Below are positions 1 through 34,916 of a DNA stretch of 52,937 nucleotides, piece after piece (positions within the stretch are counted from its first letter, which is position 1; every line of letters begins with the position of its first letter). A model generated the notes under the pieces. It worked only from the letters and a program-made list of their open reading frames with translations, was not told the origin of the DNA and made no database searches. The stretch spans positions 1 to 52,937 of the IMG/VR virus record IMGVR_UViG_3300025652_000098; one strand, given 5' to 3'. This DNA is from a virus. Taxonomy: Duplodnaviria; Caudoviricetes. The position numbers and the translations under genes are program-made.

Positions 1-166
1 CGTTAACAATAGTTGTTTTGCCGGTACCATTGCGGCTGCCATCTCCGCCAAGGTCAACATTGTTGCCCATAACCAGAGTTAGTCCGCTATCGGAGAATCT
101 TACGGCTTGGGTGATATTGCCACAACTCATAAAGTTCTTTATTGTTAGGTCTTTAATAATAATCAT
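1..166 (-). CDS. 46: Recombination endonuclease ATPase subunit (T4 gp46/SbcC/Rad50-like), N-terminal part only, runs off the window
   Basis: Manual translation from ATG at 166: MIIIKDLTIKNFMSCGNITQAVRFSDSGLTLVMGNNVDLGGDGSRNGTGKTTIVN, with the KNFxS motif and Walker A NGTGKTT. Lies downstream of gp47; ATGA overlap with the HNH stop. Confidence 0.92.
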   Translation of the reverse strand, partial: MIIIKDLTIKNFMSCGNITQAVRFSDSGLTLVMGNNVDLGGDGSRNGTGKTTIVN

Positions 167-990
167 TTGTCAAAGTTTCTCATAAGGTTTTCTTTCCAAG
201 GTAACATTCTTAGATTTTCTATTGATGATGCTTCGGCAATACTGATTCCCTTGCTGAAGCATTCGGTGACTGGCTTAATATGATCTAGTTGCCATCCATT
301 TTCTACTCCCATACGAGTTCTGGTGTGGTTGTCTGGATTGATGACATCTATATTATTATTATACACTATATTACTCATCTTGTAAACCATTTTCTTATAG
401 TCTTTATATTCATCTAGGTCATAATCGGAGGGATATCTTTCGCGGTATAGAACTGGACCTTGATCTTCGCCATATTTTTCTATATAGTATTCTACAGTAT
501 TTGTATACCGCTGTCTCTCGGCCATCTTAGTATACTTTTCTAGTCCAACCTCGTCTCCGAACCGTTCACAATAACCTACTAATGTGTTTCGGTCGGATCT
601 TTTCTGTTTTCCAGCATCCCAGATCCTCTTGCCTTCCACTTCGCCATGGCGCAATATATAGGTTTCTTCGTTCTGAATCGATAGTTTGTTTCTTTTTTCC
701 CATGCTGTATTGGCATTATCGCCATACAGTAGAATATAATGCTCTAATGAGTTTCTCACAACACTGCCAATGGCTGATAGGTTGTTGACATAATCATGGA
801 CACCATTCCGAATCATAAGCGGAATGGTGTCATTTATTGTTCTTATAGATAATGGTGATTTTGTTCTGTTGAATACATAGTCTCCGTGGTATTCAACTAG
901 TTGACGTAATCCTTCGTATTGATCCGGACTGACCGAATCAATCTTTTGTCGGATTGATTTTCTATTTAAGTATTCATCTATAATCTTCAT
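163..990 (-). CDS. Putative free-standing HNH homing endonuclease with (R/K)(H/F/Y)G repeats
   Basis: C-terminal WQLDHIKP...ENLRMLPWKENLMR fits the HNH fold. Internal repeats RHGEVEG/RFGDEVG/KYGEDQG. Separates the gp47 and gp46 subunit genes. Confidence 0.75.
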   Translation of the reverse strand: MKIIDEYLNRKSIRQKIDSVSPDQYEGLRQLVEYHGDYVFNRTKSPLSIRTINDTIPLMIRNGVHDYVNNLSAIGSVVRNSLEHYILLYGDNANTAWEKRNKLSIQNEETYILRHGEVEGKRIWDAGKQKRSDRNTLVGYCERFGDEVGLEKYTKMAERQRYTNTVEYYIEKYGEDQGPVLYRERYPSDYDLDEYKDYKKMVYKMSNIVYNNNIDVINPDNHTRTRMGVENGWQLDHIKPVTECFSKGISIAEASSIENLRMLPWKENLMRNFDK

Positions 991-8865: not shown

Positions 8866-9231
8866 ATGGCAAAGTATTATGGTTTTAGTAGTGTAAATAA
8901 AAGATCAGGCAGCACGGTTCTAGTTGATTCAGAACTTGCTAAACGTGACCTGTTGAATCATTTTTATACAAAGAAAGGTGAGCGTGTGATGAATCCAGCT
9001 TTTGGAAGCATCATATGGGATCTGTTATTTGACCCAATGGACGACTATACTCGTTCACTGGCGAAGGATGACGTTGAGCGCATCATCGGATTAGATCCAC
9101 GCTGGAGTATTAACGAAGTTTTTATTATCAGCGAGCGTGAACATTCTATAGAGGTAAGAGCTAATATAGTTTATGTATCGACTGGATCAGTGGAACAATT
9201 ATACTTAAATTTTGAGAGTGAGACAATCTAA
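8866..9231 (+). CDS. 25: Baseplate wedge subunit gp25
   Basis: DLLNHFYTKKGERVMNPAFGSIIWDLLFDP...DPR is the GPW/gp25 signature. Confidence 0.92.
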   Translation: MAKYYGFSSVNKRSGSTVLVDSELAKRDLLNHFYTKKGERVMNPAFGSIIWDLLFDPMDDYTRSLAKDDVERIIGLDPRWSINEVFIISEREHSIEVRANIVYVSTGSVEQLYLNFESETI

Positions 9232-12200
9232 TGGCACAAGGTGCAAGACAGAGCAGTTTATTTGCTGCCGAAGACTTCAGCGTAGTATACGAGAGTTTTA
9301 GCCAAGCTAATTTTCAGGCGTATGACTTTGATACAATCAGGTCTGCCATGGTGGATTATGTAAGAGCTAACTACCCGGAAGATTTTAACGACTGGATCAG
9401 CAGTAGTGAATTTGTAAGTTTAATTGAACTTATGGCATTCTTAGGTCACAACTTGGCTTTCCGAGCTGACCTTGCTAGCCGTGAAAACTATCTGAGTACT
9501 GCCGAGCGCCGTGAAAGCGCATTGCGTATTGCTGAATTCTTGGGATATGAACCAACAAGAAACGTTGTCGCTGATGGCTATTTGAAAATCAATAGTATCA
9601 AGACAAGTGAAAGATTATATGATGCCGAAGGATCAAGTCTTGCCAACAAAGATATTTTCTTTGAAGATGTGACTAACCCTGACACGTATCAAGACTTCTT
9701 GACTATTATGAATAGTATTTTCACTACTAGTAACCAATTCGGCACACCTTTTGCTAAGTTTAATCAATCTGGTGTTGTGAACGAAGTATACAAGACTAGT
9801 ACAGCAAATAACTCGGTAGTAGAGTCATTTAACTCAACTATCAGTGGACAAAGTCTGGGATTTGAACTATACAGTGTATATTACAATCAAAATGTAAATG
9901 TGATAGAAGAGCGCACGCCTGAACCAAATAAAAGTATTGACATTCTGTACAAGAATGATAATAGTGGTTTCACAAGTCCAAATACTGGATTCTTTATGGG
10001 CTTTAAGCAGGGCACGTTAAACTTTCAAGATTTTAATGTTGACACTGGCTTAGCCAACTTGGTACTAGACGTTACCGGTACTAATATTGCTAATGGTAAT
10101 ATCTGGGTACAAACAATCGGATTAGACGGCACCATCTCTACAAACTGGACACTTGTTGACAGACAATACGGAACCAACGCAATCTATAATAGTGTTTCAA
10201 ACAACCAACGAGATATCTTTACTGTGAGCAGTAGAGAAGATGACCAGATTAGTATTGTATTTGGTGACGGAAGTTTCGCAAACATTCCTCGTGGTATAAT
10301 TCGTGTTTGGTACAGAACAGGCGCCAATCTTAACTATGTTATTAATCCAAATAATATGTCAAGCATTACAAAGAACTTTAGATACACAGGAATTGATGGC
10401 AATGAATATACAGCTACAATTAATCTAGGTCTAAAAGAAACTGTAAGCAATGCGAGTATTAGAGAATCACTAAAGAGCATCAAGGATAACGCTGGTAGAT
10501 TCTATAGCGCACAGGACCGCATGGTTACTGCTGATGATTATAGCTTATTCCCACTAACAGTTAGTGAAAATGTTAGCAAGATTAAAAGTATTAACCGAGT
10601 ACATAGTGGGCACAGTCGCTTTAGAGATTTTTATGATCCTACTGCTACTTACAGTGACGCAAGTATGTATATGGATGATGGCTATCTTTATAAAGATGAC
10701 GCAACAGTAAGAAGTTTAATCGGATTACCTTCGTCATTAACATCTGAGCAAATATTTAATCGACATGTTGCTCCATTATTGAATGATCCTGAACTTACCA
10801 ACTTTTACTTTCATCGCCAGTTTTACGGAACAAATATCAGTTTGGACGGCGCAGTACCAGGTTTATATGACGCATATCAGCATTACAGTAACACAACTGG
10901 ATTGATTAATTTTTATAATGTAAATGGCAGTATCGACGATGTGTATCGTTGGAACCAAATCACTTCTGGTAATAGTAGCTCGACAGGGTATATCACTCTG
11001 AATGGCGTAGTTCAGAATTTCGGCACAGCCGCCGCTGCTCCATTAGACAAACTATCCGAGAATGGATTAGTTGAATTCATTACATCACCATTTGTTGAAG
11101 GTTATATTTCTCGTATTGAGCTTGTCAATCAGGGAAGCGGATACACAAGTGCTCCTACGATATCTATTGATGGCATCGGCACAGGAGCAACAGCAGAGGC
11201 AACTCTTACTGGTGATTCAATATCAAGTATATCTGTCACAGCAGCAGGCTCGGAATACAACTCAGCAACAAACATTACTATCACGGGCGGCGGCGGAAGC
11301 GGCGGCGTTGCTAAAGTATATGTAACCAGTGCTGACACAAAATGGGTAAAAATAGTCAGTCTTGGCAACAATGGACTTGGTGAAGATAGTGCTTCTGGAA
11401 TCCCAACAGGCATTACACTTGACAGTCGAGGTTCAGTCGCACTAGGCGGCGTTGTTCCAACTGGCGCAAGAATTAAACGAATTGTCCCAACATACAGCAT
11501 GGACACTACAACAGCAGTTAAAGCTGAAATAAAAAATGCGATTGATAATCGAAATAGCTTTGGTTTACGTTACGATATTCCTACTAGAGGATGGGCATTG
11601 GTGGCATCAGGCGATCTTCCTGGCAATAGTATTGCGTCTACAGACGTTAGTAGTTGGAGCAGACAATTCGAAGGTGATATTACAGCTGGATCATTGGATC
11701 AGAGTTGGATAATCAGATTTGATTATAGTTCTACCGATTGGGAAATACTTGTTAGAAAAACGAGGTTTGTTTTTGGTAGTGACACAACAGTTAGATTTAA
11801 CAATCTCAACTTCGAAGAAACATTTAGTAGTGCGACATCCAAGCCTAGAAGAGATAATCTAGAAGTACTTGATATTAATAATGTCTCCTCTAGTGATTAT
11901 ACACCATTGGGCAAGAAATACAAGTTTAATGTTAGCGGATACTACAAATATAGTGACGGCTATACTGATAATCATAAAGTAAAAGTTACGTTGGCTGATC
12001 CAGATAACGATAACTATCCAGATACGCCAGATGCGTTTCAGCAGGTTGTCAGAGACCAGACGATTAATCTTGGCACGATCACGGAAAATGGATATGATTA
12101 CACTGTAAGAGCCGCCACCGGCACTAATACTGGCGGACGCGAAGCAATACACACAAGATATAATAGAATTGCTGACTTAAATCAGGTAATTGATCCATCC

Positions 12201-12776
12201 AGAACTAACATCATTGATACATATGTTCTTCTTAGAAGTTACGACACTGAGTTCAGAACATGGGCAGCATATGATGGTAGATCATTTACTCAGCCAGCTG
12301 CTCCGACAGTTAATGGACTTAGTAAATTGTTTACTAGTCTGTCCACCAAGAAAACAATAAGTGACCAGATAATTTATAGACCTGTCAAGTATAAAATACT
12401 ATTTGGAGATTTGGCGTCATCTGAGTTACAGGCAAACTTCAAGATTACAAAAACAGTAAATAGTACATTGAGTGATACAGAAATCAAACAAACAGTAGTA
12501 CAACTAATAAATGAATATTTTAGTATTGACAACTGGGACTTTGGCGAGACATTTTATTTTACTGAACTTGCGTCATACGTTCATAACAACTTGATAGGGC
12601 AAATAAGTCAGATTAATATTGTTCCAATTGACAACAGATTTGGTTCAACGCTTTATGAGATTAATTCACAAAGTGACGAACTATTCCTGCCAGTTCTAAC
12701 ATCTGCTAATGTCATTGTGGAATCAAGTAACAACGCTAATCTAACTACTATAACATCAAACTCCGGAGTTAATTAA
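9231..12776 (+). CDS. 6: Baseplate wedge subunit gp6 (baseplate J-like), extended
   Basis: DFDTIR..M..Y, LIELMAFLG..L.FRADL...ENYL.TAERRES, IVFGDG.F..IP, AQDRMVTADDY. Follows gp25. Confidence 0.9.
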   Translation: MAQGARQSSLFAAEDFSVVYESFSQANFQAYDFDTIRSAMVDYVRANYPEDFNDWISSSEFVSLIELMAFLGHNLAFRADLASRENYLSTAERRESALRIAEFLGYEPTRNVVADGYLKINSIKTSERLYDAEGSSLANKDIFFEDVTNPDTYQDFLTIMNSIFTTSNQFGTPFAKFNQSGVVNEVYKTSTANNSVVESFNSTISGQSLGFELYSVYYNQNVNVIEERTPEPNKSIDILYKNDNSGFTSPNTGFFMGFKQGTLNFQDFNVDTGLANLVLDVTGTNIANGNIWVQTIGLDGTISTNWTLVDRQYGTNAIYNSVSNNQRDIFTVSSREDDQISIVFGDGSFANIPRGIIRVWYRTGANLNYVINPNNMSSITKNFRYTGIDGNEYTATINLGLKETVSNASIRESLKSIKDNAGRFYSAQDRMVTADDYSLFPLTVSENVSKIKSINRVHSGHSRFRDFYDPTATYSDASMYMDDGYLYKDDATVRSLIGLPSSLTSEQIFNRHVAPLLNDPELTNFYFHRQFYGTNISLDGAVPGLYDAYQHYSNTTGLINFYNVNGSIDDVYRWNQITSGNSSSTGYITLNGVVQNFGTAAAAPLDKLSENGLVEFITSPFVEGYISRIELVNQGSGYTSAPTISIDGIGTGATAEATLTGDSISSISVTAAGSEYNSATNITITGGGGSGGVAKVYVTSADTKWVKIVSLGNNGLGEDSASGIPTGITLDSRGSVALGGVVPTGARIKRIVPTYSMDTTTAVKAEIKNAIDNRNSFGLRYDIPTRGWALVASGDLPGNSIASTDVSSWSRQFEGDITAGSLDQSWIIRFDYSSTDWEILVRKTRFVFGSDTTVRFNNLNFEETFSSATSKPRRDNLEVLDINNVSSSDYTPLGKKYKFNVSGYYKYSDGYTDNHKVKVTLADPDNDNYPDTPDAFQQVVRDQTINLGTITENGYDYTVRAATGTNTGGREAIHTRYNRIADLNQVIDPSRTNIIDTYVLLRSYDTEFRTWAAYDGRSFTQPAAPTVNGLSKLFTSLSTKKTISDQIIYRPVKYKILFGDLASSELQANFKITKTVNSTLSDTEIKQTVVQLINEYFSIDNWDFGETFYFTELASYVHNNLIGQISQINIVPIDNRFGSTLYEINSQSDELFLPVLTSANVIVESSNNANLTTITSNSGVN

Positions 12777-15700
12777 TGAGCCAGAACTATCAAGCGAATC
12801 CTACTGATGCCCCACTAATCACACGACCAGGCGAAAGTAAGGAAAGATTGGGTACGACAAATGTTACGGGACTATTGCCTGACATTTTCAGAACTCATAT
12901 AAACAAAAAGTTTCTGAACAGTACGCTAGAACAATTACTATCCAGCGGCAGTTTACAGGCAATAAATTCGCTTGTTGGTTCAAACAACGGCTATAGAAAA
13001 GCGTCGGACATATACGACAGTAGCAATAGATTTGCGGACAACTATCAGTTTACTCCTTCGTTGGTTAATAAAAATGACAACAACGAGATTACGGATGTGC
13101 TTTCTTATGATGATTTTATATCAGCATTGGAATTCAACGGCGTTGATGTAAACAACCACAACAATATCTTAAATGAAAATGGTTATACTCTTAGACTGCC
13201 GATCAACTACGATATGTTTATCAACTATCACAAATACTTTTGGGCACTCAATACTGTGCCTGTATGCGAACTTGATTATGGATCAGGACCTCTAGCAGAG
13301 GCGCTCCTGATTGATGATATTGATGGACTTCTGCTTGGCTCAACATACACTACTCCTACTTTAGCTAACGGCAAGACACTAACATTAGAAAATGGTATGC
13401 GTGTTAAGTTCATTGGTGATAATGTATCTGGCGTAAACTATGCCAAAGATATAACCTACATTGTAGACAACGTTGGTCAACCAAGTGGCATCAAGCTCAC
13501 GGAACAATATGATGCCACTGGCACAAAAACATGGATCAATAAAACAATCTACAACTACAGCGATCCTATCAGAGATTATGTAGTAGAGCCTAGATTTGCT
13601 CCCGAGCAGAGCGCATGGTCGAGAACTAATCTATGGGTAAAAGACAGCGTAGTTATATCTGCCTGTGATTATAATGATTTAGATTCCAGCGACTACGCAA
13701 TTGAAACAGCACGAGCGGTCAGACCTATTATTGAATTCTTTGCTGATTGTGAGAAGTTTGACTTCGGTACAGAACACTTAATGAATGTGTCACACGCATT
13801 TGAGAACATCGTTGCTCCTGGTACGGATATTATAGGCGCTACCAATTTCAATCTTGCTTCGCATCTAGCAACAACTATATGGTCATTGACTGGGTTCGAC
13901 AAGGGTGATAAAGTATACGTTGATTCAGACGGTGAACTTACATACTGGGAATGTGCGCAAACCCACAACGATGCCAAGAACCCTACTTTCTACATGAATA
14001 GTGAATATTGGAAACAGATCGTTGCTAAAACAGTGGTAGACGGCGACACTATATTGTTCATATCTAGCACCGATGTAGCATATAATAATACTATTCGTAC
14101 AGCAGTCGTTGATGGCACTGGACTGATTACGGCATTAACGCCGTTACACGACAGCGGAACATTAACCCCTGGTGACAAGATTGTTGTGACAGTTGGTTAC
14201 AACGAAGTGTTCGGTGATGAATATCCAAATGATATATGGAGTGGCAGTGAATGGTACTGGGATAACACTACATGGGTATACGGACAACAAAAAGACTATC
14301 GCAGTGAAGGAATGTTATTTCAGGCATACGATATAGATTTGAATAAATTAGATGACGCCGCTGTTTATCCAAACAGCAGTTTTGCCGGTGATCCAATCTT
14401 TGATTACAGCAAGAGTACATCGTCAATCTATGATTTTGCGCTTGGCTTTAAGCCAAAGTATGCCGAGTATGGCAACAACCCAGGTTTTGAATTTACATTG
14501 GGCAGTGGCAGTATAAGATACGCATACAACAAAGTCAATACAAATGTTAACTTATCAAACTCAAGTGTATCAAATGAATTTGAAATTGCCGGCTTCTATT
14601 ACTTCAAGAACATCAATACTGGCAAATTTACAAATAACTGGACTGAAGTACGTGGCGGACAGCCGGTAAGAAGACACTACCAGAATATCTTCGGTACCCC
14701 TAGTGACTCAATGATTGTCGATCTTGGCACGAACGATGTCCATAATTACGACAGCTTTCGTGTGTTGAGTAAAGGTAGCGAACTAGAATTCCATACACAC
14801 AGTAATCAAAATTCTGTCACTACATTCAACAGAGTGAACGGAACTAATCCGGTGTTGTTTATGGCAAGAAACAAGACTTATACATTCAAGACTGTATTTG
14901 ATAGTGATGACCTACAATTTAAGGATGTCTCTGGCAATAATATTCCTGGACTTACTCGCAGCCCAGCTATTGATAATGAGTTCACGATATCTCTTGATGG
15001 AACTGTTACCGATGCTCTTATAAAATATACTCTTCCCGGAGTAGATACAGGATGGATCAGTCTGTCCGATATTAAAGAATACAATGTTGATGTGACTATT
15101 AGAAATGACAGTGGCGACACTGTTCTGCCAGAGACTGCTTATGTTATCTCGGACAATCACTTAACCATCACGCATGATTTTGCTGCTGATGATGTGGTTG
15201 ATGTTACCTGGCACACTGATGGCAAATTAACTAGCTCCGCACAGGGTTCTTTTTTACCTGCTGATACTCATATTCTTAATCCACAGAACGAGCTTGTGAC
15301 AACAGTAGAATATAGTGACCTACAGCACCATATCAAAAGTCAGATGACTTCTATTCCTGGCTTTAGTGACAGCTTTTTTGGTACAAACAACTATACAGCA
15401 TTACCGATGTTGAACCAATTTGGCGGCACGATTAGGCAGCAGGCGTTTAGTACAGAGTTACTAACCCAAACACTCAGCAACACTGATTCTAATCCATTCA
15501 GTAGTCTACGGTTTGTGTCACAGCGATATAATAGATTTAAGTCACAATTTACTCAAAAAGTAAAACAGCTACACAACACAACAGATACTAGTATTCCAGT
15601 ATATGAGTTGGTTGATCGTGCTCTAAGAGAAATGAATCTAGGCAAGAATCGCAACAGTGATTTTTCTCAAAGTGACATGGCATTTTATAATGGCTATGAA

Positions 15701-18700
15701 AGTGTAGATGTAAACTGGTATGATGGCGACAGTAATGTATTCTCATTGCCACAAACAATCAACACATTCGATGACACAGTTAACCATGTTCAGTTATGGC
15801 TAAAAGATGTTGATGGCAATGGCGTTGCTCGTTGGAGAGCATTGATCAAGGACATCGATTACACACTAACAAACTATAATGTGACAATTAATACATCAGT
15901 GACCTTTGATGGTGATAGTAGAGCATACGCCCACATTCGTTGGTATCCACAAAATAGCAGCAGCTTTATCCCACCAAGCGCAGCGAAGATGGGTCTGGTA
16001 CGACCTACTAAACTAAGCCAGTTATCTAATTTTTATATTGATGCTGGATATATCACTGGTCAGGATGACTTTGTTGCTCCTACTGTTGGCACATACACAG
16101 ATGCGCTTCAGTTACATGACGGCAGTATTCATGTTAGAATGGGCACAGAACTATATAACAGAAATAGTTCAGAATTTAATATCGTTGACGCCGCTATCTG
16201 GGAACTTGATACCAGAATAGAAAACAATCTATCAGATGCCCTTAACACGGTAGTTGATTATAAAACAATAATGCCTACAGCACATCGCAGCACCAGTTAT
16301 TCTTGGGATGACATGTCCAACGCTATGCGTGATGACTTCAATAGATGGAAAACTAGAAATAGTGTTACCGTACTAAACTCCGCGTCTTATTACGATGCCG
16401 GCGATAAGTTTACTTGGAACTACAGTAGTGTAGGACCAGGCATTGGCGGCTGGAAAGGCGTGTACACATACTACTTTAATACTGATAGACCACACACTCA
16501 TCCATGGGAGATGTTTGGCTACAACACACAACCAACATGGTGGATAGTATATTATGACTGGACAGATGTCAATAAGAAAGCAGCACTGATCACAGCATTG
16601 AAAACTGGACACTATAACAATCCAGCAGATACACCGAAATATAGTATAGATTACGCATACACAAACTATGATTGGGATACTAACACACTAGTTGATATCA
16701 CTAATGTATTGCTTGATCCTGTTGCGGCAGCCGTTGTTACTGCTCCTGTAAGTGTTGAAGCATCAAAAGACTTTGTATTTGGAGATTTAGGTCCAATCGA
16801 ATCATCATGGAGAAATAGTAGCGAGTATAAAATTAACTTGTTTAGTACACTAATGAAATTACAGCCATTGTGGACTATCAATACATATTTCAGAAGTCTT
16901 ACCAGAAGCATAATTTCGAATCCTGATATAGATACTGTACAGCATTACTTCAAAGACACAAAGAACTTAGGAAATAATAAGAACGCAAACTTCACATATT
17001 TGCCGTTCGCTGACAACATTCTTAGTACTATTACTGTAACAAATGGCGGCACTTATGCGACCGCGCCAGTATTGACAGTATTCAGTAACTTTGGTGATGA
17101 CGCAACTGTTACCGCCCATGTTAATAACGGCACAATGGCAGCAGTATCAATCGACAATCCAGGTGGCAACTTCACGGGAAGACCGACTATCGTAACAAGC
17201 GAAGGCAATGCGACATTCAATGTTACTACGATTGCTGGAGCAACAAGATACTTCGGCGGCATGGGTAATGCTATAGTTGAATTTGCCAAATATAATAACA
17301 CACCGGTTGACACATTGGTTGAAAGATTTAATAATATGGGATATTCTCCTATTGTTAAGGCTTCTGGCTTTGTCAACAACGATCAAAACTTTATATTGGA
17401 AAGTAGCCACGATAAGGGTCGTGTTTATTATCCAGCAGACAGTCATACAACAATTCTTTACACAAGTCAACCAAAAGATGAAAAATTCTTTAGTTCGGTA
17501 AAAATTACGAAATTAGCACAGGGCTTTTCTGTATCAGGAATGGACAATGTAGGACAGACATTTAGTTATTATGCTCCTATAACTACTTCTAGCAAGATTG
17601 CGGTTGACATTAATAATAAACTGTATTACAATTACAGTAAATACGACACCACGGCTACTCAATTGGCTTATAGTAGTGTGTTAGACGACACACAGGCAGT
17701 TTATAATTTCATTCTAGGCTACGAGAAATATCTATTGGCACAGGGTTGGAAAACAGCCGCGTGGGCAGCAGAGGCACAGAAATTTGTTGAATGGAATGCT
17801 ACAGCAGCAGCGGGCGATTATGTATTCGCTAAGCCAGATACCTCTAGACTAGAGATAACTGAGCCTACGTTGGGATATTATGACAGCCTATCAACAAAAT
17901 ATGATGGCGCATACAATCTGGTAGATGCTGATGGAAAATTAATCTCCAATGATAAGGTGCTAATCAGTAGAAATATTGAAACCAGCACTGGTATTAACAC
18001 GGTAATGGAAAGAAAAGACAACGACACAATCATCCATGGTATAAGATTCTACACAGTAGAATTAGAGCACGTTATCGTATTCGACAACGAAAGTTTGTTT
18101 AATGATGTAGTTTATCAGCCAGCGATGGGTAACCTGCGAGATCGTATTACTTGGAGAGGCACTAGAACAAAAGACTGGAACGGCAAACTATATGCTCCTG
18201 GCTTCGTAGTTACTGGCGACAGAATTGTTAATAACTTCGACACGGTAGCAAGAGAACTAGACCAGTATTATGGACCTGGCAATACATTGTCAAATCAACA
18301 AATGCTTGACGTAGCCCGCTTTAATGTGGGATACAATCGTCCAGCATGGGCAGATAGTCTGACATTAGATGACGACACAGTGTGGAATTTTGTTAAAGGT
18401 ACATACAAGTATAGTGGCACAGAGAATGCTCTTAACGCATTACTGCGCACAACTGCGTTATATGATACCGTTGCTGATGTCACCCTACACGAAGATTGGG
18501 CAATTAGAACTGCTGATTATGGCGATACACGTTCGAATGAAACATTGGAATTTGTATTAACCCGTGACTTAGTTAAAACAAACCCTCAGCCGATTAGATT
18601 TACAGATGGAATTCGCAATGACGTTCTGACTGACTTTGTGGTTGATGTGGATTCAAACAGTAATCTATTGGTCACCGGTACGGCAGGAAATAATTTCCAA

Positions 18701-21700
18701 ACACGAGCACCGAAACAATACAATAATACTACGTCAACAACCTTTGCTGATTTGACTCTTGTAGAGAATGACTTTAGTGACGCAGGCTTGCCACTACTTA
18801 CTGAGGCAGACTATCGTGTACTAAACAGAGATGATTTTGTTCAATTCCCGACAGAAGTAAAAGATGCGTATGACTTCTCTGGCGAATGGCAGTCTATAGG
18901 ACAATGGGATAACAAAACATCCTATAAGTTCGGCGACAAAGTGATTTATCAAGGCAGCGTATTCCAGATGGTTGACTCTTCTGGAGCAACAGGAATAACA
19001 AGACCAAATAATCCTATTGACGTTGTTGGTACCGCGGTATTGCCGATCATCAGTAAAGCCGGCGGCACATTCATTATAGGCGAATCTTCGGGAACAGCCA
19101 CGACAATCAATATCGTGAATACAACAACGACTACAAATTATAATCCTATAGCCATATCTGGAACCGAAGTTAATCCCGTGCTTGCTCAGAACACTACGTT
19201 GGTCATCGCTTCTGATGACAATGAGTTGGTAACCGTGACTTTCGCTAATATTTCTGATGTTATCGTGTATGATTCGCCTACCTCAACAGGTGACGATGTA
19301 GTTAATCCCGTTGTATCAACGCCAGGCGGCACACTCATCGTAGACGGAACAACGATAACGTTTAATGACATAGATAATAACAATATCAATGCCGAATCAG
19401 CATTGCTGGATGTTATCAATGGTTCATTAACAGTAGCACGCATAAACGCAATCGAGGCACTAAGATTGGTATATCCTTCTGGTACATGGGGCGCATTCCT
19501 TGCTTCTTACTTTGCTACTAGTGTTGCTGGATTGGATATTACTTTCTTGTTGACTGAGCGTGGAACACCAGCCTATGAGGCAGAAATCGACGCATTGATT
19601 ACCAATGATGTTAATATTATTAATAGCTTACAAGGAACTGTATATAGTCCTACACTTGTGATTGCTGGAACAGAAACAGTTGCTCCGCAAGATAGTACAG
19701 CGGCACAAACAGATATGGAAGCTGGGACATATATAGATGATGTATCGATTTGGCTTGCTGCTAATCTTACGACTGTCTTTAGTTCTAGCACAGTAGTCGC
19801 ATCACAATCAACTAACAGAGTGTATAATCTTGCTGCTATCATTCAGAAAATTACAGCAGCGGCTATTCCTAATATTGTTGCGAGTAACAGCAGCAATCAA
19901 TTGAAAATAACTAAAACAAATGTGGACACTTCTACTGCCGCGACACTAATCATAGGCGAGGGTACATTGAATACCACACTTGGCTTTCCTATTGTTGGCG
20001 AAACAGTTGTGAGTACAGGTATCGCTGTGCCGACTGCGGGTATTATCGACTTAACAAGTATAGTTTCTCAAATAAACACCGCGGTAATACCGGGCATTAG
20101 TGCGCAGGCATCTTTGAACAATACCCTAACAATATCAAGTAATTCTACACAGGTCGTAATCGATGCTTCGAGCACTGCGTTGACCGCGTTGGGAATTGTT
20201 TCAGGAACAATTCTAGCAACATCTAACGTATCGTCAACTAGTTCAACCAACGACATTGATGACATTGTTAGTCTAATCAACGCAGAAGGATTAAGTGGCA
20301 TTTTAGCAGCCAATTCCAATAACAGATTAAAAATTACTAGCACTGCTAGTACATTATATATTGGTCCAGGCACGATTAACAGTGTGGTTGGTTTACAATC
20401 CAATACATACACAGCGTCTCAGACCGTTGTTAGCAATACATTCCAGGCTATTCGTTCTGAGAATGGCGACGAGATTCAAGTATTCTTAGAGTTGGAAAAT
20501 GATCCAGCCGTGTTTAGTATCTGGGTAGCAGACGATAGTAGTCTTGATGGGCTAGGCAACTTTGGCTATGATGTTCATCAGTCGATGGACTTCGGCATGT
20601 ATGTTTCACGAGCATGTGCTGGTATTACAGAGGCAGACAACGCCGAGATTACTGTGTCTCTTGCCTCTGATGTAACTAATAACAAAGGAAACAGTCTTCA
20701 CAACCTCACAGTCGGAGACTATGTTCTAATTACAGGAAGTAATACTACTCCGAAAATTGACGGTATACACAAGGTAGTCGAGATCGATGCGAACAATAAA
20801 AGAAGATTCTTCATTGATGAGTTTATCGAAAAAGAAGGCAACGTGGGCAATATTTATCCACTGAGAAGTGTCCGTTTCGACACGATTGATAGCCTGTTGT
20901 CTGAGTATAACTCATTCACAACAGTAGACGGACTAAGCATTCCGAAATATAACTTCGCAGGATTCAGACAGAATAATAGTCTTCGTCCAATCTACGCATT
21001 CGTTAACTCTGATGACCTTGGCAGACCAGCAGTATATCGCTGGACTGGCAGATTTGGAATGACTGATGGCAATACTTACGGCGATTGGGTAAAAGTACGA
21101 GTAACATACGACCAGGCAAGAAATGACCTGATTGAAAATGTTAAGATATTCGACGCAGAGAACCAAACGTATATCAATAACATTGAAATCTTTGACCCAT
21201 TCAAAGGAATCATTCCAGGATTTGCTGAGAGAGAAATAGATTATAAATCTACCAATGACATTGCTATCTATAACTTCAATAATGCTAGCGGCAGTATTGT
21301 AACGGATAACGCATGGAAAGATTCCCATGTTGATGAGCGCTGGTGGGATCTTAGATCCGCTGTTTATCTGAACTATGAGCAGGGAAATATTGACTATAAG
21401 AGATCACATTGGGGTAGATTGTTTGATGGCGCAAGTATAGACATTTATGAATGGACACGTAGTCCTTCATTGCCAGAAGAATGGGAAACTCTTGTAACAA
21501 ATGGCGCTGTTGTGGATGGTAAAACAGCATCTGGGGAAGCGTACAGTTATGAACTAAATAATGAGACCATATATCAGTGGACTGAGTCTGTATATTACAA
21601 TCCAGACAAGAACCGCACTGAAACAACATATTACTTCTGGGTTAAAAATAAAACAACAACTGCTAATAATCGTAACTACAACGTATCACAGTTGAGAGAA

Positions 21701-23074
21701 TTGTTGACAAATCCGTCTTCGTTCGATATTTCTTGGGCAGCAGCAGCAGGAGCGGATGAGTTAATTCTTTCGAATGTGTATAACTTTACTAGTGACAATT
21801 CCGTTGTTCAAGTAAATCAGAAATATGAAAGCGAGACGCTGACTAATAGTGAGTATGTGTTACTTTCAGAAAAAGAGAATAAAAAACTAATACCGGAATA
21901 TCTACATATCAAAATGCGTGATAGTCTTGTTGGCTATAATCGTTATAGTGAAAGATACACATATACTTCGTATGATGTGGTAACAACATACAGTGTTTCT
22001 GATGTGGTACTAAGTGGCAATGATTATTATATAAGTCTACGTGATGTGAATACTGGCAACACACCTAATGCTACTGAGGAATTCTGGAGAAGAATATACG
22101 ATTATGAATTACCAGCAGAAACTCAAGCAACTGACATTGATGTATTGTCTCCTATTCTGTTGCCTAACATTAGGCTTCATCCTTATAACAGATTTGGTCA
22201 CTTGACCAGACCTGCTCAGAGTCTTATCAGAAATAAATCAGAAGCAAGACAGAACTTCATTGAAGCATTTAATTCTATAACTGCTGATATTGTTATGGTA
22301 TCAGAATATCCTAATCTAGAAGATTATATTGGACAAACTTTCGTCGAGGGTGAAGTCACATATAACCCGAGAGATTTCTGGAATTATGTTGACTATACAA
22401 AACGCACATACAACACATCCGGCGATATGGATTATATGTTTAATACTGACACTGTTGTCAACTATCGTGTGGACTCGTTGACAGATATTAGAGAAGAAAA
22501 TATATCTGGAACATACCAGAATGGTGATTTGGTTTACGTGAGTAGCATTATTCATAGTGACGGATTGACCAGACCTGCTATATATCGCAGACTTGATAAC
22601 GACTGGGTATTAGAATGGAAGAAGAACGGAACAATCGAATTTAGTGAAGAACTATGGAACGTAAATAAGTATGGACATGGGTTTGATGTAACTGGGTTTG
22701 ACTCTGTTGGGTTTGATTCCGATCCAAGTAACATATTATATCATTTGATTGAGCAAGTTAGAAACAAAATGTTCTTGACAAAACCAGAATTATATAATAA
22801 ACTATGGTTTAGTTGGTTACATCAAGCGGTGACAGAAAACACCACTAGTGACTTTGCGTTCAAGACAACATATACTTCCATGGATATTTCGTATCCGTTG
22901 AATACTACCGCGAAACTTTATCAGCCACAGAACACAGATGTGTTGGAAGGGTTCTTTAACGATATCAAACCATTCCATACTAAGCTGAGAAAGATTAACG
23001 AAAACCCAACACACGACGAAACATCTAAATTAGAGATTAGCGAGACATATTCGATAGGAATAGTTACTCCTTGA
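12776..23074 (+). CDS. Giant (3432 aa) gp7-like baseplate wedge/structural protein with inserted CBM5/12-like and nested repeat domains
   Basis: Coupled to gp6 by TAATG. N-terminal LLPDIF, internal GTENALNALL and C-terminal IKPFHTK resemble gp7/P2 gpI motifs. GFD repeats near the C-terminus. Confidence 0.65.
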   Translation: MSQNYQANPTDAPLITRPGESKERLGTTNVTGLLPDIFRTHINKKFLNSTLEQLLSSGSLQAINSLVGSNNGYRKASDIYDSSNRFADNYQFTPSLVNKNDNNEITDVLSYDDFISALEFNGVDVNNHNNILNENGYTLRLPINYDMFINYHKYFWALNTVPVCELDYGSGPLAEALLIDDIDGLLLGSTYTTPTLANGKTLTLENGMRVKFIGDNVSGVNYAKDITYIVDNVGQPSGIKLTEQYDATGTKTWINKTIYNYSDPIRDYVVEPRFAPEQSAWSRTNLWVKDSVVISACDYNDLDSSDYAIETARAVRPIIEFFADCEKFDFGTEHLMNVSHAFENIVAPGTDIIGATNFNLASHLATTIWSLTGFDKGDKVYVDSDGELTYWECAQTHNDAKNPTFYMNSEYWKQIVAKTVVDGDTILFISSTDVAYNNTIRTAVVDGTGLITALTPLHDSGTLTPGDKIVVTVGYNEVFGDEYPNDIWSGSEWYWDNTTWVYGQQKDYRSEGMLFQAYDIDLNKLDDAAVYPNSSFAGDPIFDYSKSTSSIYDFALGFKPKYAEYGNNPGFEFTLGSGSIRYAYNKVNTNVNLSNSSVSNEFEIAGFYYFKNINTGKFTNNWTEVRGGQPVRRHYQNIFGTPSDSMIVDLGTNDVHNYDSFRVLSKGSELEFHTHSNQNSVTTFNRVNGTNPVLFMARNKTYTFKTVFDSDDLQFKDVSGNNIPGLTRSPAIDNEFTISLDGTVTDALIKYTLPGVDTGWISLSDIKEYNVDVTIRNDSGDTVLPETAYVISDNHLTITHDFAADDVVDVTWHTDGKLTSSAQGSFLPADTHILNPQNELVTTVEYSDLQHHIKSQMTSIPGFSDSFFGTNNYTALPMLNQFGGTIRQQAFSTELLTQTLSNTDSNPFSSLRFVSQRYNRFKSQFTQKVKQLHNTTDTSIPVYELVDRALREMNLGKNRNSDFSQSDMAFYNGYESVDVNWYDGDSNVFSLPQTINTFDDTVNHVQLWLKDVDGNGVARWRALIKDIDYTLTNYNVTINTSVTFDGDSRAYAHIRWYPQNSSSFIPPSAAKMGLVRPTKLSQLSNFYIDAGYITGQDDFVAPTVGTYTDALQLHDGSIHVRMGTELYNRNSSEFNIVDAAIWELDTRIENNLSDALNTVVDYKTIMPTAHRSTSYSWDDMSNAMRDDFNRWKTRNSVTVLNSASYYDAGDKFTWNYSSVGPGIGGWKGVYTYYFNTDRPHTHPWEMFGYNTQPTWWIVYYDWTDVNKKAALITALKTGHYNNPADTPKYSIDYAYTNYDWDTNTLVDITNVLLDPVAAAVVTAPVSVEASKDFVFGDLGPIESSWRNSSEYKINLFSTLMKLQPLWTINTYFRSLTRSIISNPDIDTVQHYFKDTKNLGNNKNANFTYLPFADNILSTITVTNGGTYATAPVLTVFSNFGDDATVTAHVNNGTMAAVSIDNPGGNFTGRPTIVTSEGNATFNVTTIAGATRYFGGMGNAIVEFAKYNNTPVDTLVERFNNMGYSPIVKASGFVNNDQNFILESSHDKGRVYYPADSHTTILYTSQPKDEKFFSSVKITKLAQGFSVSGMDNVGQTFSYYAPITTSSKIAVDINNKLYYNYSKYDTTATQLAYSSVLDDTQAVYNFILGYEKYLLAQGWKTAAWAAEAQKFVEWNATAAAGDYVFAKPDTSRLEITEPTLGYYDSLSTKYDGAYNLVDADGKLISNDKVLISRNIETSTGINTVMERKDNDTIIHGIRFYTVELEHVIVFDNESLFNDVVYQPAMGNLRDRITWRGTRTKDWNGKLYAPGFVVTGDRIVNNFDTVARELDQYYGPGNTLSNQQMLDVARFNVGYNRPAWADSLTLDDDTVWNFVKGTYKYSGTENALNALLRTTALYDTVADVTLHEDWAIRTADYGDTRSNETLEFVLTRDLVKTNPQPIRFTDGIRNDVLTDFVVDVDSNSNLLVTGTAGNNFQTRAPKQYNNTTSTTFADLTLVENDFSDAGLPLLTEADYRVLNRDDFVQFPTEVKDAYDFSGEWQSIGQWDNKTSYKFGDKVIYQGSVFQMVDSSGATGITRPNNPIDVVGTAVLPIISKAGGTFIIGESSGTATTINIVNTTTTTNYNPIAISGTEVNPVLAQNTTLVIASDDNELVTVTFANISDVIVYDSPTSTGDDVVNPVVSTPGGTLIVDGTTITFNDIDNNNINAESALLDVINGSLTVARINAIEALRLVYPSGTWGAFLASYFATSVAGLDITFLLTERGTPAYEAEIDALITNDVNIINSLQGTVYSPTLVIAGTETVAPQDSTAAQTDMEAGTYIDDVSIWLAANLTTVFSSSTVVASQSTNRVYNLAAIIQKITAAAIPNIVASNSSNQLKITKTNVDTSTAATLIIGEGTLNTTLGFPIVGETVVSTGIAVPTAGIIDLTSIVSQINTAVIPGISAQASLNNTLTISSNSTQVVIDASSTALTALGIVSGTILATSNVSSTSSTNDIDDIVSLINAEGLSGILAANSNNRLKITSTASTLYIGPGTINSVVGLQSNTYTASQTVVSNTFQAIRSENGDEIQVFLELENDPAVFSIWVADDSSLDGLGNFGYDVHQSMDFGMYVSRACAGITEADNAEITVSLASDVTNNKGNSLHNLTVGDYVLITGSNTTPKIDGIHKVVEIDANNKRRFFIDEFIEKEGNVGNIYPLRSVRFDTIDSLLSEYNSFTTVDGLSIPKYNFAGFRQNNSLRPIYAFVNSDDLGRPAVYRWTGRFGMTDGNTYGDWVKVRVTYDQARNDLIENVKIFDAENQTYINNIEIFDPFKGIIPGFAEREIDYKSTNDIAIYNFNNASGSIVTDNAWKDSHVDERWWDLRSAVYLNYEQGNIDYKRSHWGRLFDGASIDIYEWTRSPSLPEEWETLVTNGAVVDGKTASGEAYSYELNNETIYQWTESVYYNPDKNRTETTYYFWVKNKTTTANNRNYNVSQLRELLTNPSSFDISWAAAAGADELILSNVYNFTSDNSVVQVNQKYESETLTNSEYVLLSEKENKKLIPEYLHIKMRDSLVGYNRYSERYTYTSYDVVTTYSVSDVVLSGNDYYISLRDVNTGNTPNATEEFWRRIYDYELPAETQATDIDVLSPILLPNIRLHPYNRFGHLTRPAQSLIRNKSEARQNFIEAFNSITADIVMVSEYPNLEDYIGQTFVEGEVTYNPRDFWNYVDYTKRTYNTSGDMDYMFNTDTVVNYRVDSLTDIREENISGTYQNGDLVYVSSIIHSDGLTRPAIYRRLDNDWVLEWKKNGTIEFSEELWNVNKYGHGFDVTGFDSVGFDSDPSNILYHLIEQVRNKMFLTKPELYNKLWFSWLHQAVTENTTSDFAFKTTYTSMDISYPLNTTAKLYQPQNTDVLEGFFNDIKPFHTKLRKINENPTHDETSKLEISETYSIGIVTP

Positions 23075-23735: not shown

Positions 23736-24650
23736 ATGCCATATAACATAAACTATTCAGATGCGAGTAAGCCTAATATCATCATCGCAGACGGCACACT
23801 AGATACAAGCACAAGTCTTGTGTTGCTTGGTAAAAATTCTTCAAACATCGGAGAATATTCTAACGAAAATCTTCTACATCTTTTGGAGAATTTCTCTTCT
23901 GGAGTTGAGCCCGTTAATCCAGTAGACGGTCAGCAATGGTACGACAGCTCTACGAATCAGGTAAAAATTCACGATACTGGAAAATGGTATGTGATTGGGT
24001 TTACAGGAAACACAAGAATCGAAGTAAGAAATCGTTTAGACACACAGGACATTCTTCATAAAACAATCGAAAATATTGTTGATGATGTGATTGTAACAAT
24101 CACGGTTGATGACACTACCTCATGGACGCCTGCTGCTAGTGAATTTCTAGAGGATGGTGTAACTCGGCTTGATACACAGTTCCCCACAATCCAGGCTGGT
24201 ATCAATATGAATACCACTAATAACTATAAGTTCAGAGGCACCGCTACTAGTGCTGAGTACGCCGATCTCGCGGAACGTTATGCCGCTGATAAGGTATTAG
24301 AACCAGGAACAGTTGTAAAGATTGGTGGTTCAGCAGAAATAACACAAACACTACAACAAAACGATACTGATGTATTTGGTGTAATCTCTACCGCGCCAGC
24401 ATTTGAAATGAATAGCTCAGCTGGTACAGATGACAGTCATCCATATGTTGCGCTTGCTGGACGTGTTCCTTGTAAGGTAGTCGGCAGAATACTCAAGGGA
24501 GAAAGACTAGTTACTAGTAATGTTCCTGGTCATGCTAAGTCAGCCTATATGACAGATGTGCTAGATTACAGAGCCATAATCGGTAGAGCACTAGAGGATC
24601 ATCTAGTCGAGAGCACCGGAACAATAGAGATAGTCGTAGGGACAAAGTAA
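23736..24650 (+). CDS. Short tail-fibre-like protein with C-terminal intramolecular chaperone (Peptidase G2-like) domain
   Basis: N-terminal LLGKN...NENLLHLLENF...P.NPVDGQQWYD. C-terminal YADLAERY...PGTVV.IGG...GVISTAPAF.MN...VALAGRVPCKVVG...LVTS..PGHA. Confidence 0.7.
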   Translation: MPYNINYSDASKPNIIIADGTLDTSTSLVLLGKNSSNIGEYSNENLLHLLENFSSGVEPVNPVDGQQWYDSSTNQVKIHDTGKWYVIGFTGNTRIEVRNRLDTQDILHKTIENIVDDVIVTITVDDTTSWTPAASEFLEDGVTRLDTQFPTIQAGINMNTTNNYKFRGTATSAEYADLAERYAADKVLEPGTVVKIGGSAEITQTLQQNDTDVFGVISTAPAFEMNSSAGTDDSHPYVALAGRVPCKVVGRILKGERLVTSNVPGHAKSAYMTDVLDYRAIIGRALEDHLVESTGTIEIVVGTK

Positions 24651-31028: not shown

Positions 31029-32597
31029 ATGTCGAACTACGATGATGACGCACGAGATACTCGTGACAAACTGAACTCCTTGTCATCATCCATGTGTATG
31101 GCAAAGTGGTTACAGGTTAGTTTGCATTTGCCACAAGGCAGAACACATAGTTGTTATCATCCGCCAACTCATCCTATTCCACTGGATGAACTCAAGGCAA
31201 ACCCGAACGCTCTTCATAACACCAAGTTCAAGCTAAACGAGCGTAAGCAAATGAAGAACGGCGAACGACCAAGTGGGTGTCAGTACTGCTGGAACGTAGA
31301 AGACGCCAAGGATGCTCCAAAAGAAGGTAGACTTAGTGATAGACACTATCGTTCAAGTGAGTGGTGGGTTAAAGACGCATGGGAAGAGGTAGTTAAACAG
31401 CCCTGGGATCATGATATTAAACCGCGTTACGTTGAGGTAAATTTCAATCAAGCATGTAACCTAAAGTGTAGTTATTGTAGTCCCCACTTGAGCACTGCTT
31501 GGGAAGACGACATTAATGAACACGGCGGCTTCCGATTTGCGGATGGCGGTGGACATAACGATATTGATTACTTGCGTGATACCGGCATGATGCCACTTGA
31601 GGTAGCACGAAAGGATAATCCATATATCGACGCATTCTGGAAATGGTTCCCTGATACATACAAAGACTTGAAAGTATTTCGTATGACCGGTGGTGAGCCG
31701 TTGATGGACAAGAATACATTTAAGGTTCTTGATTACGTCAATGAGAATCCTAACTCATCTATCGATCTGAGTATTACTTCTAATATGTCACCACCAACTC
31801 CTGCTTTAATGGATCGTTTCATCGAAAAGTTAAAAAAGATTGAAGAGGTAAGAGTATGGGAAGATACAACACGTATCAATCCTCACACTGGCAACAACTG
31901 GTATGTATCCCCAGCATGTAAACATTTTTCATTATTTGTGAGTGTTGACGGCGTAGGCAAGCAGGCGGAATATATGCGAGACGGATTAGACTTTGATACA
32001 ATGTACGAGAATTGTCGCAGAGTTCTTAGAGAAACAAACGGTACTGAGATATCATTCATCAATACGTTCAATTTGTTGAGTATTCCAAACCTGCGTGGAT
32101 TCTTAGACATGATACTAGCACTGCGTGAAGAATTTGGATATGAAAATCAGGAAGATATTATTATCACTCCGCCTGATCATAATGGGTTCAAGCATCCGGA
32201 GTTTGTTCGCAAGAAGCGTCAGCGCATATGGTTTGATATTCCTTATCTTCATTTTCCAGACTGGATGACTATTCAGTTGGCTTCACCCGAGATGTTGGAG
32301 ATAATCGAAGATAATATCGAGTATATGAAAGCAAATATTCTACCAGATGATCTATACGGTCGCAAGTATACGGGCTTCAAAAACTACGAGGTACTGAAAC
32401 TGGAACGAGATTTAGCATGGGCTAAAGAAGGACTAAATATAAGTGAGACAGAATTAAGTAACAAGTTAATTCGGTTCTACGAATATTTCACACAATATGA
32501 TAAACGCAGAAATTTAAATTTTCTAGAAACATTTCCAGAGATGGCAGATTTCTGGAATAAAGCCAAAGAAGAGAAAGAGGCAAAATATGGGTCGTAA
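31029..32597 (+). CDS. Radical SAM protein with N-terminal twitch domain (rSAM1)
   Basis: CNLKCSYC, TGGEP. N-terminal CMAKW...SCYHP...CQYC. Confidence 0.9.
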   Translation: MSNYDDDARDTRDKLNSLSSSMCMAKWLQVSLHLPQGRTHSCYHPPTHPIPLDELKANPNALHNTKFKLNERKQMKNGERPSGCQYCWNVEDAKDAPKEGRLSDRHYRSSEWWVKDAWEEVVKQPWDHDIKPRYVEVNFNQACNLKCSYCSPHLSTAWEDDINEHGGFRFADGGGHNDIDYLRDTGMMPLEVARKDNPYIDAFWKWFPDTYKDLKVFRMTGGEPLMDKNTFKVLDYVNENPNSSIDLSITSNMSPPTPALMDRFIEKLKKIEEVRVWEDTTRINPHTGNNWYVSPACKHFSLFVSVDGVGKQAEYMRDGLDFDTMYENCRRVLRETNGTEISFINTFNLLSIPNLRGFLDMILALREEFGYENQEDIIITPPDHNGFKHPEFVRKKRQRIWFDIPYLHFPDWMTIQLASPEMLEIIEDNIEYMKANILPDDLYGRKYTGFKNYEVLKLERDLAWAKEGLNISETELSNKLIRFYEYFTQYDKRRNLNFLETFPEMADFWNKAKEEKEAKYGS

Positions 32598-34137: not shown

Positions 34138-34916
34138 TGTATGATACTCTGTGGATAGGCTGTAGTCACAGTTCTGGGTTATACGATTATAAGAATCGTA
34201 TAATCGACTCACGATGTGGTATCGCATCTCGTATCGCGGATCATTATAAGCAATCGTGGAAAATATTATCATTTCCCGGCGATGGCAATCACACCTTTAT
34301 GGAAATTGTAAAGACACTAGATGATCTGGACGAGCTTAAAAAATTTAAGAACATAATAGTGCAGCAAACATATGAGCCTAGGCTTAACTTTTATGAACAG
34401 GCAGCCCACCAGGACCGCATGACAGCAGTAATAGATTTCATACAATCTGATAACCATGAGAAGAACGATGTATTGAATGCCGCCATCCGCGGGCATGATA
34501 AGAAAGTTTTTTCTTTAATTGCCCGTGAATTATTTACCCAACATGGCTGGAAGTTTACTAAGGAAAATATTAACTTTATTGATGTAATACGACACATCGT
34601 AGACAATATAGACCCACGCAATAGTTCATTGCCACATGGTTCTATTTGGACTAAAGCAGCGATAGATTATATTGAACTCGTTTCTGAAAAGAATGGATGT
34701 AATTTTTATACATTTAAATGGGTGGGTAGCTACTGTACACAGTCTGATCCTGGTGTCACTGGATTATTCAAAGGCAATCAAGATTTACTCCAATTAATTA
34801 AAGAAGCAAATCTACAATCTGAGCTTAGTAAATTGGGGTGTCACCCCACAGAAAAAATAATTCAGTTCGCATTAGATATTTTAGTAAGGGAGTTAGACGA
34901 AATTGGGTACAAATAA
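34137..34916 (+). CDS. SGNH/GDSL-like hydrolase or acyltransferase
   Basis: Block I-like IGCSHS, G.GN, IIVQQT...R and C-terminal HP. Confidence 0.55.
   Translation: MYDTLWIGCSHSSGLYDYKNRIIDSRCGIASRIADHYKQSWKILSFPGDGNHTFMEIVKTLDDLDELKKFKNIIVQQTYEPRLNFYEQAAHQDRMTAVIDFIQSDNHEKNDVLNAAIRGHDKKVFSLIARELFTQHGWKFTKENINFIDVIRHIVDNIDPRNSSLPHGSIWTKAAIDYIELVSEKNGCNFYTFKWVGSYCTQSDPGVTGLFKGNQDLLQLIKEANLQSELSKLGCHPTEKIIQFALDILVRELDEIGYK

Follow-up and report, generated by a model that had tools for sequence, protein, structure and literature searches.

A predicted self-nested stalk of FliD-D3-like domains, carrying a helical tip, in a giant putative baseplate protein of an uncultured jumbo phage

Nested domains are already known from the flagellar cap protein FliD, from flagellin and from contractile tail sheaths. 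According to PMC8533109, domain D3 of FliD is a loop insertion of D2, it resembles D2 of the flagellin FliC, and both D2 and D3 are dispensable for filament formation; the authors of the XM1 study noted that the sheath insertion domain resembles FliD D3 (PMC10457771). In this article we analyse one block of a phage genome fragment (Duplodnaviria; Caudoviricetes; IMG/VR record IMGVR_UViG_3300025652_000098), whose whole length of 52,937 nucleotides is called the window below. The block, positions 18902-20524, is in frame with a giant open reading frame (ORF) of 3432 amino acids (aa) and encodes 541 residues of it without a stop codon (aa 2043-2583). We consider it likely, on the basis of predicted models, that this block contains three domains of the same kind nested in each other, N3+C1 in distal, N2+C2 in middle and N1+C3 in proximal position, which together present a helical tip.

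The layout described by the original prediction, namely a start resembling carbohydrate-binding module family 5/12 (CBM5/12), three N-terminal half-repeats (N-halves), a helical segment of ~140 aa, three C-terminal half-repeats (C-halves) and a closing DPAVFSIW, was confirmed by the translation, by shuffling and by profile hidden Markov models (HMMs) (Table 1). Repeat scores were expressed as z values against 500 shuffles of the single window sequence. The C-halves resemble each other clearly (C1-C3, z 12.8 and C2-C3, z 6.0, each with 0 of 500 shuffles as good; C1-C2, z 3.8, with 1 of 500), and among the N-halves N1-N3 (z 5.0, 0 of 500) and N1-N2 (z 2.5, 18 of 500) could be recognized, while N2-N3 (z 0.9, 90 of 500) did not reach significance when the single sequence was used. 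Good alignments of the N-halves were obtained among the homologues, and HMMs derived from the homologous halves recovered all six halves (N-halves at E 2e-9 to 7e-13, C-halves at E 9e-16 to 4e-26), in a search that is partly circular, as the models include the window's own halves.

Table 1. Position of the block, its segments and the surrounding genes in the window
Feature	Position	Strand	Remarks
hub/lysozyme-like gene	6588-7877		upstream of giant ORF; PHROG match
gp25-like gene	8866-9231		upstream of giant ORF; PHROG match
gp6-like wedge gene	9231-12776	+	PHROG match; directly before giant ORF
giant virion/putative baseplate protein, host of the block	12776-23074	+	3432 aa; phrog_10938
CBM5/12-like motif, N-terminal part	18902-19015	+	aa 2043-2080; Pfam CBM_5_12 match
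N1, putative N-terminal strands of outer/proximal domain, partner C3	19028-19159	+	starts at aa 2085; N-half HMM E 2e-10
N2, putative N-terminal strands of middle domain, partner C2	19160-19291	+	starts at aa 2129; N-half HMM E 2e-9
N3, putative N-terminal strands of inner/distal domain, partner C1	19292-19399	+	starts at aa 2173; N-half HMM E 7e-13
tip, predicted eight-helix bundle of ~130 aa between N3 and C1	19400-19816	+	aa 2209-2347, 139 aa
C1, putative helix and strands of inner domain	19817-20041	+	aa 2348-2422; C-half HMM E 1e-20
C2, putative helix and strands of middle domain	20042-20251	+	aa 2423-2492; C-half HMM E 9e-16
C3, putative helix and strands of outer domain	20252-20455	+	aa 2493-2560; C-half HMM E 4e-26
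closure including DPAVFSIW (aa 2576-2583), back to protein body	20456-20524	+	aa 2561-2583
radical SAM ORFs (starts)	31029, 32587, 34903, 36096, 37314, 38530, 41109, 44815	+	Pfam
further ORFs listed with the radical SAM run	39949-40557, 42508-44802, 47447-48964		

Two AlphaFold2 models of the block were compared. The one built with 8 aligned sequences reached a predicted local distance difference test (pLDDT) value of 60.9, whereas model 2, made with a 40-row alignment, had a mean pLDDT of 87.6 (85-88 among the five models). The smaller alignment, A1, comprised the window and seven of eight loci, locus L005 being excluded because its statistics duplicate those of L004; the 40 rows of alignment A3 were obtained with the exclusion of L005, L009, the near-duplicates P0006, P0009 and P0011, the tip-less P0034, P0044 and P0045, and the partial or divergent P0040, P0047, P0051, P0057, P0063, P0064 and P0084. 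In model 2 most of residues 51-520 lie at pLDDT 89 or above, with local values of 90-93 in N1, 89-95 in C3 and about 90-98 in the tip helices; the CBM-like start (54-75) and the closure (40-58) are modelled poorly. The 139 residues of the tip are predicted to form eight helices.

The topology was inferred from the aligned ranges of a structural search, in which an all-against aligner was applied to 48,161 PDB representative chains, and from the listed docking contacts. The FliD D3 match comprises ~94 aligned residues spread over model residues 96..456, which corresponds to N2+C2; the matches to sheath insertion domains comprise ~104 aligned residues spread over 136..390, which corresponds to N3+C1; and ~81 aligned residues are spread over 51..514/516, that is N1+C3. 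Since so few aligned residues are distributed over such long spans of the model, three discontinuous domains are predicted, and the same three spans were found in the shallow 8-row model. When the N-side (aa 2085-2208) and the C-side (aa 2348-2560) were docked as two separate chains, the interface score ipSAE was 0.67, 0.69 and 0.69, while the best of the 3 controls scored 0.00; the runs agreed in at least 92% of the contacts and the pLDDT of the partners was at least 83. Of 80 solved complexes 58 reach the mark applied to this score, as do 2 of 110 mismatched pairs; these counts are a rough guide here, as a custom alignment was used. The pairs with the lowest error were between C2 and N2 (model residues 397-441 with 98-129), residue 366 of C1 was paired with residue 161 of N3, and N1 also took part in the interface: the predicted contacts are those of the nested register.

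Pairing of N-halves and C-halves between subunits, i.e. domain swapping that would turn the block into an oligomerisation device, was also considered. Baseplate proteins are oligomeric, and docking with separate chains does not distinguish pairing within a chain from pairing between chains. The single-chain model, however, closes all three domains within one chain with high confidence, the order N1, N2, N3 ... C1, C2, C3 is what nesting requires and exactly what closure within one chain needs, and FliD, flagellin and sheath proteins use the same fold as a nested insertion within a single chain. Swapping is for these reasons very improbable.

The pairing of the halves can also be followed in nature. 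The N-half and C-half HMMs were mapped over 93 collected proteins, and the order N-N-N ... C-C-C was found in 22 of 40 giant homologues, with an NN/CC arrangement in P0044 under a relaxed N-half search. An 851-aa protein with an Mtd_N start (P0068) carries seven tandem C-halves at a spacing of ~88 aa; an N-half was detected directly ahead of three of these, and ahead of the remaining four it is visible by eye only. The distant homologue P0016 possesses one extra contiguous N+C unit (aa 2627-2722) in a different loop of the protein, after a conserved I-D-E-F-I-x-x-x-G motif (the equivalent loop of the window is at ~20831-20851), which shows the N+C unit to be a plug-in module that moves. In three further relatives (P0034, P0044 and P0045) the innermost N-half is joined straight to the innermost C-half with no tip between them. 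Because such contiguous units occur, an N-half and a C-half are, as judged from their sequences, to be regarded as a single putative domain of ~90-110 residues (~88 aa in the contiguous unit). The proposal that three nested domains display a helical tip was thus borne out by the two models with their predicted long-range N-C pairing, by the docking with its controls and by the natural contiguous N+C units.

Regarding the fold, head domains of FliD were the top structural matches and insertion domains of contractile sheaths were the next; FliD or sheath proteins accounted for 9 of the top 11 structural rows with model 2, the first model gave the same picture, and the superpositions on FliD D3 and on the sheath insertion domain stand clearly above the rows of unrelated proteins. 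The best match in BFVD was a 1117-aa tail sheath protein (E 7.6e-6). On the strength of the models the domains are filed under the FliD-D3/sheath-insertion fold class. At the sequence level the relationship is much fainter. A PDB sequence search with the block returned only a chance hit at E 1, and a search of the PDB sequences with the C-half profile returned no FliD. The coiled-coil D0/D1 regions of FliD constitute the Pfam families FliD_N and FliD_C, neither of which was found in the 3432-aa protein, where a Pfam scan at E <= 0.01 lists only CBM_5_12. In profile-profile comparisons with hhalign, whose P values stand for one comparison each, 16 contiguous units gave weak matches to a profile built from 60 enterobacterial FliD D3 regions (P 0.0011, probability 20%) and to full FliD (P 0.0081), and the C-halves of the window's clade weakly matched full FliD as well (P 0.002); a shallower comparison, in which alignment A2 was set against E. 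coli FliD as a single sequence, yielded E 0.12. All these profile alignments land on E. coli FliD ~134-212, the stretch that holds the I-N motif, inside the structurally aligned range, and distant homology to FliD D3 is probable.

The C-halves had originally been likened to the IN motif of flagellin and hook proteins. This likeness holds at the level of the fold, together with the weak profile matches to the IN stretch of FliD (P 0.001-0.008), and does not hold for the family itself: Pfam Flagellin_IN (PF07196, curated threshold 22.7 bits) had no match at E <= 10 in the block, in its pieces or in the six-frame translation of the window. Among the relatives only sub-threshold matches to this family were seen, in one of 29 members of alignment A2 (E 0.0011) and in P0091 (E 0.0021, 18.6 bits).

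The distribution of the block was mapped in phage records and in metagenomic relatives. A tblastn search with aa 1400-3432 found 93 phage records, from Rak2/GAP32-like, PA5oct-like and Vibrio jumbo phages; in every record the match falls into two parts with the block left out between them, and in none of the 93 did the matches cover 80% of the query. The gap between the flanking significant high-scoring segment pairs is 822 aa in the window protein, 258 aa in Vibrio phage 2.275.O and 166 aa in GAP32, and the block alone had no tblastn match in 50,697 phage records. On the other hand 13 metagenomic giants (2847-3750 aa) match 100% of the block query at 34-81% identity, the block is present in eight IMG/VR loci as well, and a profile search of 1.84 billion representatives gave 79 matches (cluster representatives) at E <= 1e-3, most of which are giants that carry the matching region at an equivalent relative position. 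The block is missing from the cultured relatives GAP32 and Vibrio phage 2.275.O and kept in the metagenomic giants; comparison with relatives backs the view that the block is a lineage-specific insertion, kept in a clade of uncultured jumbo phages and present in at least 40 metagenomic giants. Identity to the relative P0004 is 74-89% in the block versus 84-96% in most of the remaining protein, and the block is thus among the somewhat faster-evolving parts of the giant protein. Two other regions, aa 601-800 and 1601-1700 (14576-15175 and 17576-17875), are as divergent as the block or more so, with 24-38% and 20-37% identity to distant relatives; these may be further variable inserts, perhaps including the first stalk to which the title of the original prediction alluded, and the N-half and C-half HMMs had no match in either of them.

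Several points weigh against the nested architecture. All the structural evidence is prediction, and the predicted template modelling score of model 2 is only 0.50, thus it establishes neither how the domains are oriented to each other nor, in consequence, how stiff the array is. The docking result may in part reflect a memory of solved FliD and sheath folds. Foldseek against the PDB was not significant, with H. pylori FliD on top for both models (E 3.4e-3 and 0.16), consequently the fold assignment rests on the all-against-representatives aligner. The junction of the insertion could not be significantly aligned with GAP32 or the Vibrio phage, as MAFFT mis-anchored it and none of the blastp pieces fell below E 0.38; short motifs common to the junctions can be seen by eye and have no statistical support. 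Finally, the protein P0077 has tandem C-halves at intervals of ~58 aa, of which the first alone is preceded by an N-half, and a C-half may accordingly be able to fold alone.

This last protein, with C-halves that lack detectable N-halves, and the insignificant N2-N3 repeat of the single sequence, are what one would expect without any nesting, that is, if the N-halves formed one small beta-domain array and the C-halves three independent IN-like modules, with the helical segment as a separator. Against such an arrangement, discontinuous N+C domains are given by both models, the docking scores of up to 0.69 contrast with 0.00 in the controls, contiguous N+C units are found elsewhere, and the numbers of N-halves and C-halves co-vary (NNN/CCC in 22 of the 40 giants, and NN/CC in P0044 by the relaxed search). 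We attribute hardly any probability to it, and three domains nested in each other remain the likely architecture.

The array itself seems to be enclosed in one more domain. The stretch aa 2043-2080 matches positions 1-40 of the 44 positions of Pfam CBM_5_12 (PF02839) at E 1.7e-4 with 22 bits, below the curated 26.2 bits, hence it is called CBM5/12-like here; 7 of 8 aligned relatives match the family at E <= 0.01 (the best at 2.9e-6) and P0067 reaches 26.7 bits. The array begins just ahead of the expected last strand of this motif, and after the array distant homologues have N-x-F-x(3)-[DE]-W-x-x-I, where the window's clade has V-F-L-E-L instead. Two uninterrupted CBM5/12-like motifs were observed in the same protein, at aa 374-415 (13895-14020, + strand) and aa 3072-3107 (21989-22096, + strand), by means of a custom pattern; Pfam reported none there at E <= 0.01. 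Both of them end in the same way as the stretch after the array in the distant homologues. Because the first 40 of the 44 profile positions are taken up ahead of the array and the ending behind it matches, the array is probably located in the last loop of a split CBM5/12-like motif, which would represent a fourth level of nesting, and aa 2561-2583 is the probable site of the last strand of the motif, in a closure of low local confidence. The original prediction, which took the motif for a start only, probably missed that it encloses the array.

The pathway of the chain can be outlined on this basis. It would leave the protein body via the CBM5/12-like hairpin and run outward by way of the N-terminal beta-strands that belong to three alpha/beta domains (~110 residues each), would fold at the far end into the bundle of eight predicted helices, and would return through the helix-plus-strands parts of the same domains in reverse order (completing N3+C1, then N2+C2, then N1+C3), so that this insertion of ~545 aa closes adjacent to its start. 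The socket would be the loop between the last strand of an N-half and the helix of a C-half, which could accept either the next copy of the domain or a cargo. Because two chain segments cross every domain boundary, the array is expected to be a fairly stiff stalk, with an estimated length of the order of 10 nm. T4 gp7 is present in one copy per wedge. If the stoichiometry here is gp7-like, there would be six stalks per baseplate.

The content of the innermost slot varies among the relatives. The tip HMM matches 24 of 40 giants; the slot of P0032 and P0036 holds a longer, diverged helical domain, that of P0029 and P0040 holds beta-rich domains, and in three of the 40 giants the gap between the N-side and the C-side is 0-37 aa, that is, the slot is empty. 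The tip had no match to a Pfam family, and the best score of a feature search, 0.78, was at chance level.

As the most likely role we tentatively propose that the stalk holds an exchangeable distal module off the baseplate, in putative contact with the host surface; the proposal is based on the observations that the cargo changes, that the frame is CBM-like and that the block evolves faster. A receptor-binding role of the candidate tip, as was suggested originally, is plausible. It speaks against such a function that the tip has no recognisable binding fold by Pfam, feature search or structural search, and that it is not hypervariable, being 84% identical to P0004, compared with 69-76% for N2, N3 and C2; hypervariability as a sign of receptor binding was rejected on this ground. 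A more far-reaching version, according to which a FliD-D3-like domain serves a clade of uncultured jumbo phages as a recursive display scaffold, anchored in a split CBM5/12 motif and carrying interchangeable host-recognition tips, with the eight-helix bundle as a new receptor-binding fold, must be considered doubtful in its entirety.

The main rival is a purely structural role, in which the nested stalk would be a decoration or brace that touches wedges, fibres or sheath and stabilises a large baseplate without any host recognition. It would fit the finding that sheath proteins and FliD heads employ this fold for an outer decoration that is not essential (for FliD D2 and D3, PMC8533109), as well as the conservation of the tip, which equals that of the stalk, the three relatives without any tip, and the fact that the best viral structural match is a tail sheath protein. 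Unrelated cargos in one socket, helical bundle and beta-rich domains alike, are nevertheless more typical of host-facing modules, the block evolves more quickly than most other parts of the protein, and it begins with a carbohydrate-binding-like motif; we hold the structural role possible, on the unlikely side.

The block had also been regarded as very Ser/Thr-rich and as a candidate glycosylation target. Serine plus threonine amount to 24.4% of the block and 17.2% of the rest of the protein, therefore the enrichment is mild and the original wording was too strong; charged and aromatic residues are scarce in the block. That the block should mainly be a target of O-glycosylation, which would mask or tune the baseplate surface, could draw on this difference in composition and on a cytidylyltransferase-like ORF at 3110-3697. 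An enrichment of this degree is however usual for beta-rich phage tail domains, the serine and threonine residues lie in predicted strands of well-folded domains and not in disordered linkers, and no glycosyltransferase family was found at E <= 1e-4 by Pfam in 20 downstream ORFs, the upstream ORFs having been scanned with PHROGs only. The glycosylation claim found no support in these results and is very unlikely to describe the main role of the block, for which host-surface contact of the distal module remains our tentative preference.

The genomic setting gives some further information about the protein that hosts the block. The fragment (52.9 kb, GC content 39%) was estimated to represent ~15% of the complete virus, which implies a jumbo phage. 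The 3432-aa ORF belongs to phrog_10938, annotated as virion structural protein, with an E value of 2e-229 and 765.7 bits over four stretches, and it follows gp25-like and gp6-like wedge genes, as is the position of gp7-type genes in T4. Cronobacter phage GAP32 is annotated with the same order of genes (gp234/233, gp232, gp231, then the 3341-aa gp230), and so is Vibrio phage 2.275.O, where a 3771-aa protein is found at the equivalent place. It is because of this synteny that we label the giant ORF as a putative baseplate protein in T4 gp7 position; a phmmer search of the PDB sequences for a solved relative of the whole protein gave no match at E <= 1.

In the neighbouring genes the following was observed. 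Base 12776 is common to the stop codon of the gp6-like gene and the ATG of the giant ORF, an overlap compatible with translational coupling. Residues 588-714, in the middle of the gp6-like wedge protein, have matches at E 1e-6 to 1e-11 to several PHROGs that are unrelated to one another (virion structural, head closure, hub/lysozyme), which suggests another shared plug-in module. Just past the giant gene a 304-aa ORF (23736-24650, + strand) has a sub-threshold match to the Peptidase_G2 IMC autoproteolytic domain (E 2.8e-4), and its PHROG matches include a tail fibre protein; it may encode a fibre or spike that carries a self-cleaving chaperone domain. Farther downstream at least eight radical S-adenosylmethionine (SAM) ORFs are located on the + strand within 31029-46011, five of them with a SPASM domain N-terminal to the radical SAM core, and the run is interspersed with a 2-oxoglutarate/Fe(II) (2OG-Fe(II)) oxygenase-like ORF, a 764-aa methyltransferase and a carbamoyltransferase. 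An array of radical SAM paralogues directly downstream of a jumbo-phage tail module is unusual.

The proposed model would bring together the head domains of flagellar caps, the decorations of tail sheaths and the giant baseplate proteins of jumbo phages. A small fold with adjacent termini would have been repeatedly inserted into its own loop, with the innermost loop taking cargo, and in this manner a phage could make a baseplate appendage longer and equip it anew with no gene added. Should the tip be a host-binding module, the block would mark a host-specificity locus in a large group of uncultured phages; if it is decoration only, it would still be a clean and testable case of domain nesting at four to five levels. 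In either case the scaffold may be viewed as a natural, ready-made design for the display of domains on a rigid arm. In a limited library of the literature no description of such a nested array in a phage baseplate protein was found.

Compared to the nearest relatives of the whole protein, GAP32 gp230 and Vibrio phage 2.275.O NVP2275O_424, the window protein has a homologous body (25-31% identity over two blocks) in the same order after hub, gp25-like and gp6-like genes, but those two proteins lack the block and have 166-258 aa between the segment pairs instead of 822 aa. With the D2/D3 domains of FliD (5H5T, 5H5V, 6KTY, 5FHY, 6IWY) the predicted domains share the succession of a strand, a helix with the I-N motif and further strands, and they share nesting as a principle, D3 of FliD being inserted in a D2 loop; the block differs in that it has no D0/D1 coiled-coil legs, and in that one fold is predicted to be nested three deep in itself, with cargo, in a phage baseplate protein. 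From flagellin with its outer domains D2/D3 (4NX9, 8ERM, 9YGU) the block differs in that it has no D0/D1 filament core, and by HMM the two are unrelated in sequence. The insertion domains of contractile sheaths (XM1 gp6 InD 7KH1, A-1(L) 8KEE, E217 8ENV, Mu 9KHY, PhiTE 9CB9) are likewise outward plug-in domains on a phage tail protein, and extra-long sheath proteins were the best viral structural matches of the block; the host protein here, however, is a giant protein in gp7 position and not a sheath, and in place of the sheath insertion it would carry three self-nested copies with a helical tip, inside a CBM5/12-like motif.

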